Below, one piece after another: positions 2,412 to 24,012 of a stretch of DNA of 64,000 bases. Under the pieces are notes generated by a model, which was not told the origin of the DNA, ran no database searches, and saw nothing but the letters and a program-made list of their open reading frames with translations. Source of the stretch: an uncultured virus (IMG/VR IMGVR_UViG_3300043411_001904) (lineage: Duplodnaviria > Heunggongvirae > Uroviricota > Caudoviricetes); IMG/VR virus record IMGVR_UViG_3300043411_001904; one strand, 5' to 3'. Position 1 is the stretch's first letter. Every line of letters begins with the position of its first letter. Position numbers and translations under genes: made by a program.

Positions 2412-5066
2412 ATGAAACTATTATTAACTATAATATCAATTCTAATATCTCTATGCTGTAAATCAACAATCTATTACATTTCTCCTAGCGGAAATGACTC
2501 AAACTCAGGGACATCCATAACTACACCATGGAAAACAATAAATAGAGCTAACTCAAATTCTTACACTTTTCAACCAGGAGATCAAATTCTTTTCGAAAAA
2601 AGTGGAGTATACAGAGGGTTTTTATTAATTGGATCTTCCGGGAACGCAACAAACCAAATAACTGTGTCATCATATGGATCAGGAGATGATCCAATTTTTC
2701 TAGGAAGTGATCCAGCAATTAATTGGACACTACATAGTGGAAACATTTGGAAAACACAAATGCCAAGAATATATAATATTTTCTGTGAAGGAGAATTGAT
2801 GAACTTGGCTAGATATCCAAATTCTGGATGGCTACATAATGATCTAGGAACCAATAATAGAATAAATGATTCTGAATTAACTCAATCTTCTGGATATTGG
2901 AATGGATCAACCATTGTTGTAAGATCATCAGGATGGAGCTATGATACCGCAAGGGTAACTAGCTATACGCCTGGGGTATTAAATTTCACAACCATTGGTC
3001 ATAGTTTGCTCACATATGAATGGGGATATTTTATTCAAAATAAATTCTCTGAATTAAATTCTCCCGGTGAATGGTTTTGGGATTCATCCACACAAACATT
3101 ATATTTTTGGCCACCAAATGGAACAAACCCAAATAACTTAAACATAGAATGTGTTACTAATGCAACTCAATATGCCTCAGGAGTACGAACCTCTTGGATG
3201 AAAAATTATGTAACTATCTCAGGAATAGATTTCCGAAACTACATTAAATCAGGAGTCAGTACATCCGGAGGTAATTGGATAACAATATCAAATTGCAAAT
3301 TTGATCATTGCGGAACTCCATTATATCTATATGGAAACAATCAAAATGTCTCGAATAATTTTATAACTAGAACACTTAAAACATCCATATTTGTAGTATC
3401 TGGACCAGATGGCGGAAATAACAATATAATACAAGAAAACACCATAATAAATTGTTCCTTATATCCTGGACAAGGAGAATCTTGGGGATATTTCGGAATA
3501 AGGCTAGATGGAAATAATAATATAATTAGAAAAAATAGACTTATTAACATTGGATACATTGGGATAGTTTTTGGTGGTAATTGTCTAGTCGAAAACAACT
3601 TTATACAAAGGGCTTGTTCAATACTCAACGATGGATCAGGAATAGCCTTTGACACATCTGACGGTGGTATTGTAAGAAAAAATATTGTTCTGTCCACAAC
3701 TGGAAATACCGAAAGTTGTGCGCAAGATTATAATGGATGTGATCCAAAAGGCAAAGGAATATACTTCGGAAACATATCCAATAAAAATATTGTTGTAGAA
3801 GAAAATACAGTAGCTTATTGCAATGGGGCAGGAATATGGGTTGATAATACTATGGTTTCTCAAAACAATATAGTTAGAAATAATCACCTATTCGGAAACA
3901 ATTTATATCAAATCGGATTCTCAGACTATTCAAATTATAATGGTCCAGGAGCTACCTCTCCATACATCGTCACAACATATAATCACACCATTCAAGGAAA
4001 TATACTTTATTCAAACGATCCTCTACAAAAGACCATGTTTCATCTGAACAAATGGTATTCAAATGTTGATTATGGAACATTTACCGATAATTATTATGTA
4101 AATCCATGGGATACAATAAATATTCAAATAAACAACTTACCACTATCCGTGACCACGAATCATTCACTATCTTCCTGGTCAGCTGTCCGAGGAGATGATT
4201 TGAATTCAAATAATTCTCCATATATGCCTCAATCCACTATAGATGACCATACAGTAGTATACAATGATCAACTATCTACACAAGTGATTGGTATACCATC
4301 AGGACTTTGGAGTGATGTCTACGGAAACACCTACACCAATAATATTCAATTACAACCATTTGAATCTAAAATTATATTCAGGTCTGCTTCTACTACTTCA
4401 TATTTTAAGGTTAAAATATTCTTAGATGGTCCAATGAATTGGGCAACTTTAACAATGAATAAAAATGTGACAATACCACCAACAAATCCATATCAAACTC
4501 CTGAAGTACTAGACTACCCACAATCTGATATAGTCGATTGGATAAAAATGGACTTAGTAAGTTCCCAAAATCAAATATTAGAATCTAAGTCCTTTTTATT
4601 AAGAAGGGATGGTCAAGTACTAACAAACAATGGATCCGAAAATCTAACATTCAATCAATCATTTGATGGTAAATATCTAATAATTCGACACAGAAATCAT
4701 TTACCAATAAAATCAAATACCACAATTTCCGAAGGCAACCTATCAGACTTCACACAAGCAAGTTTAAACAATATCTGGGGGATCAACCCAACAAAAATTG
4801 TTGGTGCTCGTCGATCATTATGGTCAGGAGACGTGAATCAGGATGGAATGGTTAAATACGTAGGGAGTGGAAACGATAGAGATCCAATATTAGTTTTAAT
4901 TGGGGGATCCATACCAACTGAAATAGTTTATGGTGGATATCATAGCGAAGATGTTAATATGGATGGAATGGTTAAATATACCGGAGCCAATAATGACAAA
5001 GATATAATATTAATGAACATTGGCGGATCCTTACCCACCAATGTTACATATCAACAATTGCCATAA
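2412..5066 (+). CDS. Secreted right-handed beta-helix (pectin-lyase-like) protein with C-terminal dockerin/EF-hand-like repeats
   Basis: Signal peptide; YYISPSGNDSNSG..PWKTI start; Asn-rich PbH repeats; duplicated D-V-N-x-D-G-M-V-K-Y-x-G motif as in Flavobacteriales surface proteins. Confidence 0.75.
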   Translation: MKLLLTIISILISLCCKSTIYYISPSGNDSNSGTSITTPWKTINRANSNSYTFQPGDQILFEKSGVYRGFLLIGSSGNATNQITVSSYGSGDDPIFLGSDPAINWTLHSGNIWKTQMPRIYNIFCEGELMNLARYPNSGWLHNDLGTNNRINDSELTQSSGYWNGSTIVVRSSGWSYDTARVTSYTPGVLNFTTIGHSLLTYEWGYFIQNKFSELNSPGEWFWDSSTQTLYFWPPNGTNPNNLNIECVTNATQYASGVRTSWMKNYVTISGIDFRNYIKSGVSTSGGNWITISNCKFDHCGTPLYLYGNNQNVSNNFITRTLKTSIFVVSGPDGGNNNIIQENTIINCSLYPGQGESWGYFGIRLDGNNNIIRKNRLINIGYIGIVFGGNCLVENNFIQRACSILNDGSGIAFDTSDGGIVRKNIVLSTTGNTESCAQDYNGCDPKGKGIYFGNISNKNIVVEENTVAYCNGAGIWVDNTMVSQNNIVRNNHLFGNNLYQIGFSDYSNYNGPGATSPYIVTTYNHTIQGNILYSNDPLQKTMFHLNKWYSNVDYGTFTDNYYVNPWDTINIQINNLPLSVTTNHSLSSWSAVRGDDLNSNNSPYMPQSTIDDHTVVYNDQLSTQVIGIPSGLWSDVYGNTYTNNIQLQPFESKIIFRSASTTSYFKVKIFLDGPMNWATLTMNKNVTIPPTNPYQTPEVLDYPQSDIVDWIKMDLVSSQNQILESKSFLLRRDGQVLTNNGSENLTFNQSFDGKYLIIRHRNHLPIKSNTTISEGNLSDFTQASLNNIWGINPTKIVGARRSLWSGDVNQDGMVKYVGSGNDRDPILVLIGGSIPTEIVYGGYHSEDVNMDGMVKYTGANNDKDIILMNIGGSLPTNVTYQQLP

Positions 5067-6716
5067 TTAAAATCCTTCCTTCAAAGAAACAGATCTATTA
5101 AAGGATAGACCATCTTTATCAAGTGCGTAATATCCTTTTCTCATCATTTGAACACCCTCACCAACTTTTATATCCAAAATGGATGGTTCAAAAAAACCAT
5201 CTCGAACAACTAAAGATTCCTTATTCAGGTGATCCAAAAAGTCTTTATCACCACCATCAGGATTTGGATGATCAAAAAGAACATCATAGTCATTAACACT
5301 TCTCTTAACAGCAGAAGGCTCATAAACCCAATGTATAGTACCTTTAACCTTTCTATCAACCAATTCCCCAGATTTTGTTTCAGGATCATAATCACAGATA
5401 ACTTCGGTAATTTTTCCATCAACCTCAATACAATCCACAGCCTTAACAATATAGGCGCCCTTTAGTCTAACCTCACCACCAAGCTTAAGTCTGTGATACT
5501 TTGAGTTAGCCTCTTTTCTAAAATCTTCCGATTCAATCCAAAGAGAATTTCCAAATGGAATAAGCCTAGACCCCATATTTGGATCTTCAGGATTATTTTC
5601 CACACTAACCATTTCCACACCACCAACCCAATTGCGAATAGTCAATTTAATTGGATCCATAACACCCATAATTCTTTTCGATTTCTTATTCAAATCTTCT
5701 CTCAAACATTCTTCTAATAAAAGGTGACTAATCAAAGATTCTCTCTTAGTGACACCAACTTTATCGCAAAAATTTCTTATAGATTCAGGTGTATATCCTC
5801 TTCTTCTAAGTCCAGATAAAGTAGGAAGTCTTGGATCATCCCAACCATCAACAATTCCCTCATCAGATAGTGTTTTAATTTTTCTCTTACTCATAATAGA
5901 ATAGTCTAGATTCAATCGAGCAAATTCTGTTTCTTCAGGCAAATTTCCTGAGAGATCACAATTCATCAAAACCCACATATAAAGTGGTCTATGAACTTCA
6001 AATTCAAGAGTACAAAGAGAATCTGTAATTTCTTCAAAGTAGTCACACAATGGATGTGCAAAATCATACATTGGATAGATTTTCCACTCAGTTCCCGTCC
6101 TGTGATGTGGACTATCAATTATTCTATATATGACAGGATCTCTCATGATCATATTAGGATGAGACATATCAATTTTAGCTCTGATTGTCATAGACCCTTC
6201 AGAAAACTCTCCCATCTTCATTCTCTCAATAAGATCTGAATTTAATTCAGGATCCATATTTCTATATGGTGAGTTGACACCGGGTGATGTTGTAGTTCCT
6301 TTCATCAAAGCAATTTCTTCAGAAGAAGAAAGATCAACATATACCAACCCCTTTTTAGCCAAAACCATTAGCTTCTCATAAATAAAATCAAAATAATCTG
6401 ATGTATATGTAATTCTGCTTGGCCTAAATCCCAACCACTCTATATCCTTTAACATAGACTCCACATACTCCGATTCCTCAGTGGATGGATTAGTATCATC
6501 AAATCTAAGTATACATGGAGCACCATACTTTTCAGCTAGTCCAAAATTTAAACACATAGCCTTAGCATGACCAAGATGAAGACCTGAATTATATTTTACA
6601 GTCTCCATCCCATCAATTATAGACACAACCTTTGTGCCATTAGGCTCTGGTGGAAATCTTAGCTTTAGCTTATCAAGATTTCCCTTCTTTACTATCTTTT
6701 CCTCTATGAAGTTCAT
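5067..6716 (-). CDS. glnS: Glutaminyl-tRNA synthetase
   Basis: RFPPEPNG, HLGH (HIGH), RFDDTNP, YPMYDFAH, CTLEF, MSKR, GWDDPRLPT, GEVRL, KGTIHWV. Confidence 0.95.
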   Translation of the reverse strand: MNFIEEKIVKKGNLDKLKLRFPPEPNGTKVVSIIDGMETVKYNSGLHLGHAKAMCLNFGLAEKYGAPCILRFDDTNPSTEESEYVESMLKDIEWLGFRPSRITYTSDYFDFIYEKLMVLAKKGLVYVDLSSSEEIALMKGTTTSPGVNSPYRNMDPELNSDLIERMKMGEFSEGSMTIRAKIDMSHPNMIMRDPVIYRIIDSPHHRTGTEWKIYPMYDFAHPLCDYFEEITDSLCTLEFEVHRPLYMWVLMNCDLSGNLPEETEFARLNLDYSIMSKRKIKTLSDEGIVDGWDDPRLPTLSGLRRRGYTPESIRNFCDKVGVTKRESLISHLLLEECLREDLNKKSKRIMGVMDPIKLTIRNWVGGVEMVSVENNPEDPNMGSRLIPFGNSLWIESEDFRKEANSKYHRLKLGGEVRLKGAYIVKAVDCIEVDGKITEVICDYDPETKSGELVDRKVKGTIHWVYEPSAVKRSVNDYDVLFDHPNPDGGDKDFLDHLNKESLVVRDGFFEPSILDIKVGEGVQMMRKGYYALDKDGLSFNRSVSLKEGF

Positions 6717-7842: not shown

Positions 7843-7915
7843 ATGAGGAAATGGGACTTGAACCCATATCTTCGGAGCCAGAATCCGAAATCATAACCAA
7901 TTAGACTATTCCTCA
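7843..7915 (-). tRNA. tRNA-Gln(CUG)
   Basis: TGAGGAA/TTCCTCA acceptor; anticodon arm TCGGA-TTCTGGC-TCCGA; T arm ATGGG-TTCAAGT-CCCAT. Confidence 0.9.
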
Positions 7916-8012: not shown

Positions 8013-8083
8013 ATGCCTGACCTGGATTCGAACCAGGGATAAGTGAGCCAAAATCACTTGTGTTACCACTACACTATCAGGCA
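8013..8083 (-). tRNA. tRNA-Gln(UUG)
   Basis: TGCCTGA/TCAGGCA acceptor; AGTGA-TTTTGGC-TCACT; CCTGG-TTCGAAT-CCAGG. Confidence 0.92.
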
Positions 8084-8085
8084 AT

Positions 8086-8130
8086 AAAAAAACAAAAAAC
8101 CGATCAATTTTGAGATTGATCGGTTTTTTG
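8086..8130 (-). terminator. Intrinsic terminator (attenuator) upstream of the tRNA-Gln cluster
   Basis: AAAAAACCGATCAAT-CTCAAA-ATTGATCGGTTTTTT followed by GTTTTTTT. Confidence 0.85.
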
Positions 8131-8150
8131 AGTATTTTTTGGACAATACT

Positions 8151-8210
8151 TTACCTCTCAATCTGTCGATTGCTTTGCTGAGGTTGCTGGTATGTTCCGT
8201 TGAAGTTCAT
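8151..8210 (-). CDS. Gln-rich leader peptide MNFNGTYQQPQQSNRQIER
   Basis: 19-codon ORF with 5 Gln codons (CAG x3, CAA x2); 3' end complementary to the terminator 5' arm. Confidence 0.8.
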   Translation of the reverse strand: MNFNGTYQQPQQSNRQIER

Positions 8211-8224
8211 TGTTGTATATATTA

Positions 8225-8232
8225 CAAATATA
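8225..8232 (-). promoter_or_regulatory. Bacteroidota-type -7 promoter box (TATATTTG)
   Basis: Matches TAnnTTTG, 14 nt upstream of the leader ATG; -33 box only TTCG. Confidence 0.6.
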
Positions 8233-8783
8233 ATATTTGTTTTTAACAATTCGAATCTATGTAAGTATTAATTTTTCCACTTTCCCAAGTATCCAATAAA
8301 GAGAAGGCTTCCTCTTCAGTTAACTTTCTAATTCCACAATGAAATGGAGAACAATCTCCTTCTACACCAATTAAAAGAGAAATCCCAACTATAGAATCAT
8401 TTTCATAGTCAACTGATACGCAAAGATTTGGATGATACCTACAATCCTCGTAATATTCTCCGATTTTTATTTCCATAATACAAATATAACACTAAACATT
8501 AAATAATACAATTTAACCTATCATCCCTGATTTCATCAATTGTCTTGAAAAATTTATTTCCAAAATCATCATATTCATAAAATGGACTAATTCTAACACC
8601 AATACAGGGAATATCACGAGATATTCTAAGAAATGAAGTGTTTGGTTTATCACACCCAATAACTTTAACATCATTGGAATTTACTCTCTCAATTAAATCA
8701 TACTCCTTACCAACTTCCATCGTAAGATAAGGCCGAACACAAATAACTTTCATTTCACAAAAATACTAATATTTTACAAATAT

Positions 8784-9309: not shown

Positions 9310-10185
9310 TTATGATAATATATTCTTTTTATGGACATTTACTCTTCCAGATACCCAACCCATTATTAAATATCTATTCAAATCATTTTTTTTAATTTTT
9401 ATATTTTTTCCTTCTCTATTTATCCATAAAGTTCCGTGTTGAGAATTTTTTTCTCCCCTTTGATTAATAGAATTTTTTTCTCCTATTTTCTTTTTACTGT
9501 CCTCACTATGTCTACGACCTTTCCAAATTGGAAATATTGAACCATCCACAAATCTAGGATCATCTCTATGGGCTAAAAAATAATCACCACTCATATTGCT
9601 ACTCAGTATCATATTCTTATTTAACCCACTGTGAATATCAACGTTAAACTTATCTCTTTCTATAAATTCATTTTTTCCTAATATATTGTTTCTGACACAC
9701 ATTTTTAATTTAATCAACGAGGTTAGTGATTTATTATATCTTTCATCATCAACTGGTATATAAAAAAAATTTCCAAACTCATCACACGCGGTCACATTTC
9801 CCTTTGTGATCCCAACTAATTCCCCAGAAGATATTCTTGGATCACTAACATTAACATCAAATGTATTACCATCAACATCTCTAACTGTCGCAAGATCTTT
9901 TGTTATGAATCCACCACCAATAATAATATTATAAACATCACCTCTTTTCAAAAATGAATCATTAACTAATTCAGACTCCTTTTTAATCATATCACTTTCG
10001 TTATCAAATTGATATAAAATTACCTTCTCAAAATTGGAAATTCCATATTCAGAAATTGCTTTTGTGATTTTCCTACCAGACCCCATATAACCATCATTTA
10101 TATTACGTGTTATATGAACACCAATGTAAATCATTTTATTGATTTTATTGGTTATTTGATACACTAGATATTTTCTATCTCTCAT
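9310..10185 (-). CDS. GIY-YIG (Seg-like) homing endonuclease
   Basis: VYQITNKINKMIYIGVH, YMGSG, NUMOD3-like WKGRRHSEDSKKKIG; start moved to MRDRKY because the upstream part overlaps a tRNA. Confidence 0.85.
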   Translation of the reverse strand: MRDRKYLVYQITNKINKMIYIGVHITRNINDGYMGSGRKITKAISEYGISNFEKVILYQFDNESDMIKKESELVNDSFLKRGDVYNIIIGGGFITKDLATVRDVDGNTFDVNVSDPRISSGELVGITKGNVTACDEFGNFFYIPVDDERYNKSLTSLIKLKMCVRNNILGKNEFIERDKFNVDIHSGLNKNMILSSNMSGDYFLAHRDDPRFVDGSIFPIWKGRRHSEDSKKKIGEKNSINQRGEKNSQHGTLWINREGKNIKIKKNDLNRYLIMGWVSGRVNVHKKNILS

Positions 10186-10232
10186 GTTCGATATTAGTTT
10201 TATGTATATATAAAAATATCGAACCCTCTTTG

Positions 10233-10305
10233 TGGCAAAAACCGGACTCGAACCGACATCATCCAAATCCCAAATTTGGTGGCTTACCAATTAGCCCATT
10301 TCGCC
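10233..10305 (-). tRNA. tRNA-Pro(UGG)
   Basis: CCAAA-TTTGGGA-TTTGG anticodon arm; GTCGG-TTCGAGT-CCGGT T arm; G1-C72 acceptor. Confidence 0.8.
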
Positions 10306-10315
10306 AATATTTCGG

Positions 10316-10407
10316 TCGGGACGAGAGGAATCGAACCTCTGAGGGGATTTTGTATTCCCACCCCATTCCAAGTGGGGGCCGCTACCTGACTACGGGCCTA
10401 CGTCCCG
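10316..10407 (-). tRNA. tRNA-Pro(UGG) with long variable arm
   Basis: CGGGACG/CGTCCCG acceptor, A73; CCCCA-CTTGGAA-TGGGG; variable arm GGGA-ATACAAAA-TCCC; AGAGG-TTCGATT-CCTCT. Confidence 0.8.
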
Positions 10408-10489: not shown

Positions 10490-10540
10490 AATAAAATTCT
10501 CGTCTCTCCGAAACGTCAAGCCTTGATACAGCGGCTTCCC
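10490..10540 (-). repeat. Two-hairpin element, copy 1, directly 5' of tRNA-Asp
   Basis: AAGCC-loop-GGCTT GAC GTTTCG-GAGAGA-CGAGAATTTTATT. Confidence 0.75.
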
Positions 10541-10546
10541 CTGCGG

Positions 10547-10623
10547 CGGTCTGTAGGGGTAACAATCCCCTCTGAATCTTCCGGGTGACGACCGGACGGC
10601 CACATCATGCAGCCCCACAGACC
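10547..10623 (-). tRNA. tRNA-Asp(GUC)-like, strongly divergent
   Basis: GGTCTGT/ACAGACC acceptor, G73; TCCGG-TCGTCAC-CCGGA (C33); T loop ATTGTTA. Confidence 0.6.
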
Positions 10624-10673
10624 AATAAAATTTTCGTCTCTCCGAACGTCAAGCCTAACCTCCGTGGCTTTCC
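10624..10673 (-). repeat. Two-hairpin element, copy 2, directly 5' of tRNA-Asp
   Basis: AAGCC-loop-GGCTT GAC GTTCG-GAGAGA-CGAAAATTTTATT; stems conserved and first loop different from copy 1. Confidence 0.75.
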
Positions 10674-10708
10674 TTCTTTTATCTACATCAGATGTGGAAA
10701 TGTATCTT

Positions 10709-10863: not shown

Positions 10864-10905
10864 AATTCTATATATTAAAATATTTTCTCTCTTTTTACTT
10901 ATTTA

Positions 10906-10938
10906 CAAATATAATACAAAGTTTTCTAATTTTCCAAA
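10906..10938 (-). promoter_or_regulatory. Bacteroidota sigma70-type promoter
   Basis: TTTG-N21-TATATTTG. Confidence 0.75.
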
Positions 10939-15197: not shown

Positions 15198-15288
15198 CAG
15201 AGGCTGAGGGATTCGAACCCCCGATTCGGAATTTCACCGAATTCATGTTTTCAAGACATGTGCAATAAACCAACTCTACCAAGCCTCT
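15198..15288 (-). tRNA. tRNA-Ser(UGA)
   Basis: CATGT-CTTGAAA-ACATG; long variable arm; G73; GGGGG-TTCGAAT-CCCTC. Confidence 0.9.
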
Positions 15289-16937: not shown

Positions 16938-17008
16938 AGCGGGATAACGGTACTCCCCCGTTTTATATAGCTTGGAAGGCTACCACATTAGTTTTATGCT
17001 AATCCCGC
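16938..17008 (-). tRNA. tRNA-Gly(UCC), divergent D/T loops
   Basis: GCGGGAT/ATCCCGC acceptor, U73; GTAGC-CTTCCAA-GCTAT. Confidence 0.7.
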
Positions 17009-17009
17009 A

Positions 17010-17140
17010 AAAGATAGAGAACACTGAAAAGTGTGTTTTTCTGTGCTACCATTACACTACACCAACTAAGTTGGGTCAGGATTCGAACCTGAACTCGTCA
17101 TTTTCAAGATGAAGTAACACTTTTACTCACTACTATCTTT
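17010..17140 (-). ncRNA. YrlA/Y-RNA-like permuted tRNA mimic, copy 1
   Basis: Terminal stem AAAGATAG/CTATCTTT; inner stem AAAAGTGT/ACACTTTT; T arm TCAGG-TTCGAAT-CCTGA, then closed acceptor-like hairpin, then D arm TAGTGTAATGGTAGCAC. Confidence 0.75.
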
Positions 17141-20356: not shown

Positions 20357-20497
20357 AAGATAGAGAAAATTGATCAGTGAGTTTTTTTCTGTGCTACCAT
20401 TACACTACATCGGCATAAAAACTTGAGCCGACGCCGGGATTCGAACCCGGTCTAGTCATTTGAAATATGAAGTAACACTAATCTTCACTACTATCTT
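20357..20497 (-). ncRNA. YrlA/Y-RNA-like permuted tRNA mimic, copy 2
   Basis: AAGATAG/CTATCTT ends; GATTAGTG/CACTGATC stem; CCGGG-TTCGAAT-CCCGG; GTCGGC/GCCGAT hairpin; same D arm as copy 1. Confidence 0.75.
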
Positions 20498-20498
20498 G

Positions 20499-20571
20499 TA
20501 GTCTCAACCGGTGACGATCCGGCTTCTTCGCCTTGAGAAAGCGATGTCCTACCAACGTAGACGATGAGACC
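20499..20571 (-). tRNA. tRNA-Glu(CUC)
   Basis: TCGCT-TTCTCAA-GGCGA; D arm GTCT/GGAC typical of Glu; T loop ATCGTCA. Confidence 0.8.
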
Positions 20572-23848: not shown

Positions 23849-23929
23849 TAGCGGGGGGAGGATTTGAACCTCCGTCTTTCATTTCTCGAGTTTATGAGAC
23901 TCGCGACCTTACCACTAGTCCACCCCGCA
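23849..23929 (-). tRNA. tRNA-Met(CAU), possibly initiator
   Basis: CGAGT-CTCATAA-ACTCG; 1:72 mismatch (U/U); GGAGG-TTCAAAT-CCTCC. Confidence 0.8.
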
Positions 23930-23981
23930 ATATTTTCTATATATTAACTTTTAATTGTCCCTTTTAATTTTTATTCTATTA

Positions 23982-24012
23982 CAAATATAATAAAAGTTTT
24001 CTATCCTACAAA
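23982..24012 (-). promoter_or_regulatory. Bacteroidota sigma70-type promoter
   Basis: TTTG-N19-TATATTTG; spacer similar to the promoter at 10906-10938. Confidence 0.7.

Follow-up and report, generated by a model that had tools for sequence, protein, structure and literature searches.

Leader-peptide attenuation is known for amino-acid operons and for one synthetase operon, pheST of Escherichia coli. In the pheST attenuator (leader pheM), a leader with codons for the cognate amino acid, alternative hairpins, and a terminator precede the synthetase operon, and the signal is charged tRNA. The attenuators trpL, hisL, leuL, thrL, ilvL, and pheL follow a four-region logic with the pairings 1:2, 2:3, and 3:4, the regulatory codons lying in region 1 and the stop codon beside region 2, and control enzymes that make amino acids. 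T-box riboswitches raise the expression of aminoacyl-tRNA synthetases when the cognate tRNA is poorly charged, likewise by means of a terminator and an antiterminator. Here we describe a glutamine (Gln) leader–terminator unit, standing directly before tRNA-Gln genes and upstream of the glutaminyl-tRNA synthetase gene glnS, in 64,000 nucleotides (nt) of DNA of an uncultured virus of the class Caudoviricetes (IMG/VR record IMGVR_UViG_3300043411_001904); this whole stretch is called the window. Judging from sequence and predicted folds, the unit is very probably a ribosome-mediated (leader-peptide) transcription attenuator, which would sense the decoding of Gln codons and set the transcription of the phage tRNA-Gln genes and probably of glnS.

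The Gln unit resembles the pheST attenuator in all the points named above. The two differ in the amino acid (phenylalanine in pheST), in the carrier (a bacterial chromosome for pheST, a phage here), and in the order of the genes, tRNA genes coming first here and the synthetase further downstream; pheST has no sequence or Rfam relationship to the Gln unit. The four-region logic and the placement of regulatory codons and stop codon are shared with the trpL-type attenuators. Unlike them, the Gln unit would control a tRNA and probably its charging enzyme, so the sensed molecule belongs to the class of the products. New here are the amino acid, a phage as the carrier, and tRNA genes as the target; the logic is that of trp, his, and pheST. 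We know of no Gln-specific leader-peptide attenuator. A literature search at the level of abstracts gave no paper on attenuators before tRNA genes or on a Gln-codon attenuator, and the main text of the huge-phage paper PMC7162821 has no wording with attenuat-, leader, or terminator.

The gene order on the minus strand, to which coordinates refer unless stated otherwise, is a promoter-like motif, the leader, the terminator, three tRNA-Gln genes, four small open reading frames (ORFs), and glnS. The leader ORF (8210–8151) has 19 codons and a stop codon, with ATG at 8210–8208 and TAA at 8153–8151. Five of its codons specify Gln (codons 8, 9, 11, 12, and 16; three CAG and two CAA), and four of these form the regulatory cluster CAG CAA CCT CAG CAA (codons 8–12; 8175–8189). 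Among 868 ATG ORFs of 8–45 codons on both strands of the window, the leader alone contained at least four Gln codons within five; in the long ORFs of the window, Gln made up 2.5% of residues. These parts were as the sequence-only reading of this DNA had described them, namely a QQPQQ leader with both Gln codons, two tRNA-Gln (UUG) and one tRNA-Gln (CUG) behind it, and a glutaminyl-tRNA synthetase (GlnRS) gene about 1.1 kb further on the same strand. DNA contigs from four sequencing runs were compared, and one contig of a relative spanned the leader and retained it, its differences including a synonymous change in a Gln codon and the replacement of an Arg codon by a Gln codon (standard three-letter abbreviations are used for the other amino acids); the remaining contigs spanned parts of the stretch. 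Among sequencing runs of RNA, none was found to contain this DNA.

A promoter-like 13-mer lies at 8222–8234, 11 nt ahead of the leader ATG. It includes a match to the Bacteroidetes −7 consensus. The exact 13-mer was found in three copies in the window (8222–8234, 10903–10915, and 23979–23991), all on the minus strand and each ahead of a tRNA block; with up to two mismatches, 22 copies were found vs. 15.9 expected, i.e., not above chance. The 13-mer is probably a promoter dedicated to tRNA units, and transcription would start there, just ahead of the leader.

Terminator scanning and folding revealed a 16-bp hairpin (8130–8093, −19.4 kcal/mol) preceded by an A-run and followed by a T-run (8092–8086), after which 4–5 nt remain to the first tRNA-Gln gene. 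The minimum free energy (MFE) of the 157-nt region was −36.2 kcal/mol (z = −5.7), and none of 200 shuffles was as stable. Four regions can be assigned. Region 1 (8168–8184), the 5′ strand of the leader hairpin in MFE folds and a putative anti-antiterminator, overlaps the last Gln codons. Region 2 (8153–8164), the antiterminator strand, ends at the first base of the stop codon. Region 3 (8115–8130) is the 5′ arm of the terminator, the antiterminator partner (8124–8113) extending from it into the loop, and region 4 (8093–8108), the 3′ arm, leads into the T-run. The leader hairpin (1:2), with Gln codons on its 5′ side and the stop-codon segment on its 3′ side, was predicted in 12/12 distinct units folded. 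In the window and in L003, the reading frame across the conserved nucleotides of region 2 differs from that in the other units; region 2 is therefore conserved as RNA, not as peptide.

The sequence-only reading had proposed that the end of the leader pairs with the terminator at 10 of 12 positions. This pairing was recovered: 8164–8153 forms 10 pairs with 8124–8113 around a 2 × 2 internal loop, with an energy of −13.2 kcal/mol compared to −6.3 ± 2.1 kcal/mol for 500 dinucleotide shuffles (p = 0.008). The antiterminator pairing was stronger than that of 500 dinucleotide shuffles in 15/15 Gln units (p from 0.002 to 0.046), a set that includes near-duplicates and comprises 11 distinct units. A swap control with 16 units gave a mean of −12.35 kcal/mol for strands paired with their own terminators vs. 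−8.96 kcal/mol for other pairs, and 0/20000 permutations reached the former mean; the own terminator was among the top three partners in 10/16 units. L014 and L015 have unrelated terminator stems and likewise unrelated region-2 sequences, which match their own stems. The core of the pairing, 7 nt long, is common to most units. Terminator stems differ among units, with compensated pairs at most positions. A MAFFT alignment was not used, since variable stem and loop lengths put the helices out of register; pair changes were tabulated per predicted helix instead, and supplemented with the shuffle and swap controls.

The distance between the Gln codons and region 2 agrees with ribosome dimensions. 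Counted from the first base of codon 12, the last Gln codon in the cluster, region 2 of the window begins after 13 nt. In 12/14 units this distance was 12–14 nt, the two exceptions having 16 and 21 nt, and region 2 overlapped the stop codon or lay within 5 nt of it in 14/14 units. The reach of a ribosome in the 3′ direction from its A site is 12–13 nt. Folds in which the ribosome-covered bases were blocked gave the antiterminator in the nascent transcript of 14/14 units when the ribosome was placed at the Gln codons and the terminator in 14/14 when it was placed at the stop codon. The spacing and the modeled folds are thus in line with the earlier suggestion that a ribosome at the stop codon would mask the antiterminator strand and one stalled at the Gln codons would free it.

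The attenuator would work as follows. With ample Gln-tRNA(Gln), the ribosome would reach the stop codon and mask region 2 (8164–8153); with no ribosome on the leader, region 2 would be paired with region 1. In both situations the terminator (8130–8093) would form, and the polymerase would halt 4–5 nt before the first tRNA gene. With charged tRNA-Gln scarce, the ribosome would stall at codons 8–12 and open the leader hairpin. Region 2 would then be left free, because it begins 13 nt past the A-site codon, and could pair with the emerging 5′ arm of the terminator, so that the terminator would be lost and the tRNA-Gln and downstream genes transcribed. Their products would raise Gln-tRNA(Gln) and close the feedback loop.

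The window has a GC content of about 31%, nearly all genes on one strand, and 12 tRNA genes (ARAGORN). Its positions 8091–5074 matched two genomes of uncultured phages (642 and 635 kb) at about 70% identity (blastn), and by this similarity the window derives from a huge phage, kin to these. Genomes above 634 kb are assigned to the Mahaphage clade, with Bacteroidetes as predicted hosts, in the text of PMC7162821. At the homologous place, the two large phage genomes have an ORF of 16–17 codons with 7 Gln codons, followed by a terminator, three to four tRNA-Gln genes, and glnS, which starts about 30 nt past the last tRNA. Protein searches with GlnRS yielded 13 viral loci and 80 metagenome loci, the latter split into 9 phage-like and 71 bacterial-looking ones; the viral and phage-like loci together with the two large phage records made up 24 phage-type relatives. 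A Gln-run leader with a terminator abutting the first tRNA-Gln gene was present in 14/24 relatives, with leaders of 15–26 codons and 4–7 Gln codons. The count is 15/24 with L008, where a protein ORF and glnS, with no tRNA gene, lie behind a Gln-run leader and terminator (377–500); to go by its gene order, the synthetase appears to be the only target of the Gln unit in this locus. In L139, a block of Gln, Asp, and Pro tRNAs and glnS lie behind a leader of mixed Pro/Gln/Asp type. The upstream sequence of L006, L137, L138, and L146 was too short to judge. Such a unit was found at 0/71 bacterial-type glnS loci. A loose scan of viral contigs with a degenerate DNA pattern gave at least 119 stretches, and five with a tRNA directly downstream were among those listed, four of these on contigs already under study.

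These data bear on the possibility that the leader is a chance ORF of a spacer, the hairpin an ordinary terminator of the upstream gene block, and the tRNA genes unregulated. Between the end of the upstream ORF (8243) and the hairpin, which looks bidirectional, are 113 nt, and AT-rich DNA is rich in small ORFs (868 in the window). Chance, however, does not account for the Gln-run leaders that occupy the same position in 15 relatives despite sequence divergence, for a leader that is the sole Gln-clustered small ORF of the window, or for antiterminator pairings that fit their terminators, beat shuffles, and keep a fixed spacing. Moreover, in most relatives the unit sits between two tRNA blocks and not after a protein gene. 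We therefore regard this explanation as very improbable. A similarly low probability is given to the idea that the unit is a gene with a function of its own, making the leader peptide as a micro-protein or the terminated leader RNA as a small RNA, and that the terminator merely ends this gene. The leader in the window has its own promoter-like motif and a strong terminator, and trans-acting attenuator RNAs and leader peptides are known (rnTrpL and peTrpL, also according to abstracts). A stand-alone product, however, needs neither pairing of its 3′ end with a terminator arm nor a fixed distance from codons to strand, peptide-level conservation is limited to the Gln run, and in nearly all units the terminator lies 4–5 nt from the 5′ end of the tRNA. 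A trans function could exist alongside attenuation.

The attenuator reading was also set against a translation-dependent switch that does not sense the supply of Gln-tRNA(Gln) but ribosome availability in general, the coupling of transcription to translation, or, through nascent-peptide arrest, a small molecule. Anything that slows the ribosome would act on a scaffold of leader hairpin, antiterminator, and terminator. The composition of the leaders, however, follows the identity of the downstream tRNAs, with Gln leaders before tRNA-Gln and Pro/Gln/Asp leaders before Asp and Pro tRNAs. A second unit of the window is of the latter kind: a 31-codon leader (10863–10768) with Pro, Gln, and Asp codons and a terminator (10743–10720) stand before Asp, Gly, and Pro tRNA genes. 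This leader also holds many Asn codons at its start, and a copy of the promoter-like motif lies at 10903–10915. Pro/Gln/Asp leaders with a terminator were found before Asp/Pro(/Gln) tRNA blocks in eight relatives. The antiterminator pairing was weaker in this class, with p from 0.014 to 0.094 in four units, including that of the window. The complete 642 kb relative (LR756502.1; L001, L215–L217) carries 50 tRNAs in a few blocks (Rfam). Seven of its tRNA blocks each lie behind a leader and a terminator, with leaders enriched in the amino acids of their own block, and two small regions are without a unit. Five of the seven units came from five further regions of this genome, and the enrichments in their leaders are Lys/His/Phe, Ser/Arg, Glu/Tyr, Ile/Gly/Ala, and Asn/Leu/Thr/Val, matching the tRNAs behind them; the other specificities in this genome are Gln and Pro/Asp. 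Over the seven units, the fraction of leader residues with a tRNA in the own block was 0.37 vs. 0.12 for other blocks, and among 5040 permutations the true assignment alone scored that high. This match of seven leaders to seven blocks speaks against a general sensor of translation, as does the peptide, which is not conserved outside the Gln run and whose end is read in different frames; such a switch is, in our judgment, improbable. The share of CAG among leader Gln codons was 9/28 where a tRNA-Gln (CUG) lies behind the leader and 6/50 where UUG tRNAs alone do (Fisher p = 0.04), the units compared not being phylogenetically independent.

It is extremely unlikely that uncharged tRNA-Gln is read directly by an RNA sensor that needs no translation, whether T-box-like or bound by a protein. 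T-box elements control aminoacyl-tRNA synthetase genes in other bacteria. They bind tRNA without a ribosome, whereas the Gln unit has no T-box motif, is far shorter than a T-box, and contains a conserved Gln-codon ORF that a direct sensor would leave unexplained. Neither a T-box nor another curated cis-regulatory RNA was matched at gathering score in the window or in a permissive Rfam search of 8060–8300. The latter gave sub-threshold hits to unrelated small RNAs (e.g., 24.8 bits vs. a gathering score of 174.8). The amino-acid leader families of Rfam (His, Leu, Thr, Trp, and similar) gave no match either, and only tRNAs reached gathering score.

Several observations weigh against attenuation by Gln codons or limit its reach. 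Within the family, the Gln cluster is weakest in the leader of the window, where a Pro codon separates two pairs. The fifth Gln codon of this leader (codon 16) belongs to region 2, and stalling there would favor termination. The terminator (−19.4 kcal/mol) is more stable than the antiterminator (−13.2 kcal/mol); switching must therefore be kinetic, presumably through competition between the two as they form. The same order of stabilities holds for the trp attenuator. Being symmetric and flanked by an A-run and a T-run, the terminator hairpin of the window scores as a plus-strand terminator too. In the sub-family that shares the pairing core, terminators of other units pair better than a unit's own (which ranks 6/16 for the window), so the covariation comes mainly from G-U changes and from the small number of units whose terminators differ. 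At least four relatives depart from the pattern: L005, L135, and L136 have no tRNA-Gln or leader within 2.5–3 kb of glnS, L135 being the closest GlnRS relative (84% identity), and L012 has a tRNA-Gln without an adjoining unit. Finally, the units are related by descent, and the counts given above are not of independent events.

The first gene behind the terminator is tRNA-Gln (UUG) at 8083–8012 (ARAGORN; Rfam, 64.5 bits). It is followed by an 85-nt tRNA whose anticodon is UUG and whose variable arm is long (8005–7921) and by tRNA-Gln (CUG) at 7915–7842, both detected by ARAGORN and Rfam. The long-arm tRNA (82–87 nt) is part of the Gln operon in eight phages, with compensatory changes in the stem of the variable arm; its other copies are located in L001 (3087–3171), L002 (2955–3036), L004 (2823–2905), L009 (2793–2874), L011 (2744–2830), L013 (2743–2826), and L014 (1826–1909). 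Bacterial tRNAs with a long variable arm are those for Leu, Ser, and Tyr. The phage GlnRS may charge the long-arm UUG tRNA as a phage-specific substrate. In L137 and L138, another ORF is inserted between the tRNA-Gln genes.

The glnS gene (6716–5067) lies 1125 nt past the last tRNA and codes for a glutamine–tRNA ligase of 549 amino acids. The protein scored 600.2 bits against TIGR00440 (glnS; cut-off 425.8) and contained the Pfam domains PF00749 (tRNA-synt_1c) and, for anticodon binding, PF03950 and PF20974. Between the tRNAs and glnS are four small ORFs (7826–7386, 7356–7171, 7100–6858, and 6861–6673), all on the glnS strand, the first starting 16 nt past the last tRNA. None of the four had a convincing family match in Pfam, NCBIfam, or PHROGs, and a homologue search with the small ORF of 146 amino acids gave one unannotated relative. 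The terminator scan found no terminator-like site on the minus strand from 7842 to 6716, and promoter-like matches in the tRNA–glnS region were not in excess over chance (36 vs. 34.7 expected). Co-transcription of glnS with the tRNA-Gln genes in the window is plausible, with a chance that we put at about even or slightly better. The proposal of one Gln attenuator for the tRNAs and glnS has thus gained from conservation, pairing, and covariation, and is qualified by a link to glnS that is indirect in the window, with four small ORFs and 1.1 kb between, and direct in 8 of the 14 relatives with a unit next to tRNA-Gln, where glnS lies within about 35 nt of the last tRNA-Gln gene. At its end, glnS converges with a plus-strand gene (2412–5066) for a protein of 884 amino acids with a right-handed beta-helix region (Pfam), and a terminator-like hairpin is located at 5045–5016.

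No leader–terminator unit was seen at four other tRNA blocks of the window: Ser at 15288, a tRNA at 17008, Glu/Gly at 20571–20281, and Met/Gly/Glu at 23929–23114. Between the second terminator and tRNA-Asp is a stretch of about 210 nt (10490–10700) with two copies of a motif of about 30 nt (a small hairpin and a short T-run) and a tRNA-like sequence with a GUC anticodon loop, called by neither ARAGORN nor Rfam. An ORF for a GIY-YIG homing endonuclease (9310–10290; Pfam; PHROG 314, 3e-30) lies between the two tRNA blocks that have units, and units that adjoin each other in other phages seem to have been moved apart by insertions. Among unusual tRNAs of the window, a 94-nt tRNA-Gly (CCC) at 10314–10407 was called by ARAGORN and missed by Rfam at gathering score, and at 16938–17100 and 20360–20500 tRNA halves stand in unusual order beside called tRNAs. 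Candidate units were noticed elsewhere too. L012 (1078–1240) has a leader rich in Asn, Gln, and Tyr before a Tyr-like tRNA and two tRNA-Asn genes; in the unrelated viral contig L073, a minus-strand leader with several Leu codons at its end stands before tRNA-Leu (UAA); and L014 (about 5000–5130) has a unit before tRNA-Trp with a single Trp codon, a poor match.

In our view, it is rather probable that huge phages of this group possess a genome-wide, codon-resolved feedback, in which nearly every tRNA block, and in the present case the matching synthetase as well, is gated by a leader with the codons that its tRNAs read. If so, the phage would gauge the decoding capacity of its host for each amino acid and replenish only the limiting tRNAs; the depletion could be caused by decay of host tRNAs, by tRNA-cleaving defenses of the host, or by the codon demand of the phage itself. 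The Gln unit, if it acts as proposed, would be the first known attenuator of a tRNA together with its aminoacyl-tRNA synthetase, and the decoding speed of a codon would be restored directly by the regulated products. Being short, self-contained, and of many specificities, such units could also serve as natural codon-specific sensors. Attenuation of this kind would account for how huge phages, with their dozens of tRNAs, keep from expressing these blindly, and it would answer why phages carry tRNAs and synthetases at all: as a conditional compensation of host decoding capacity.

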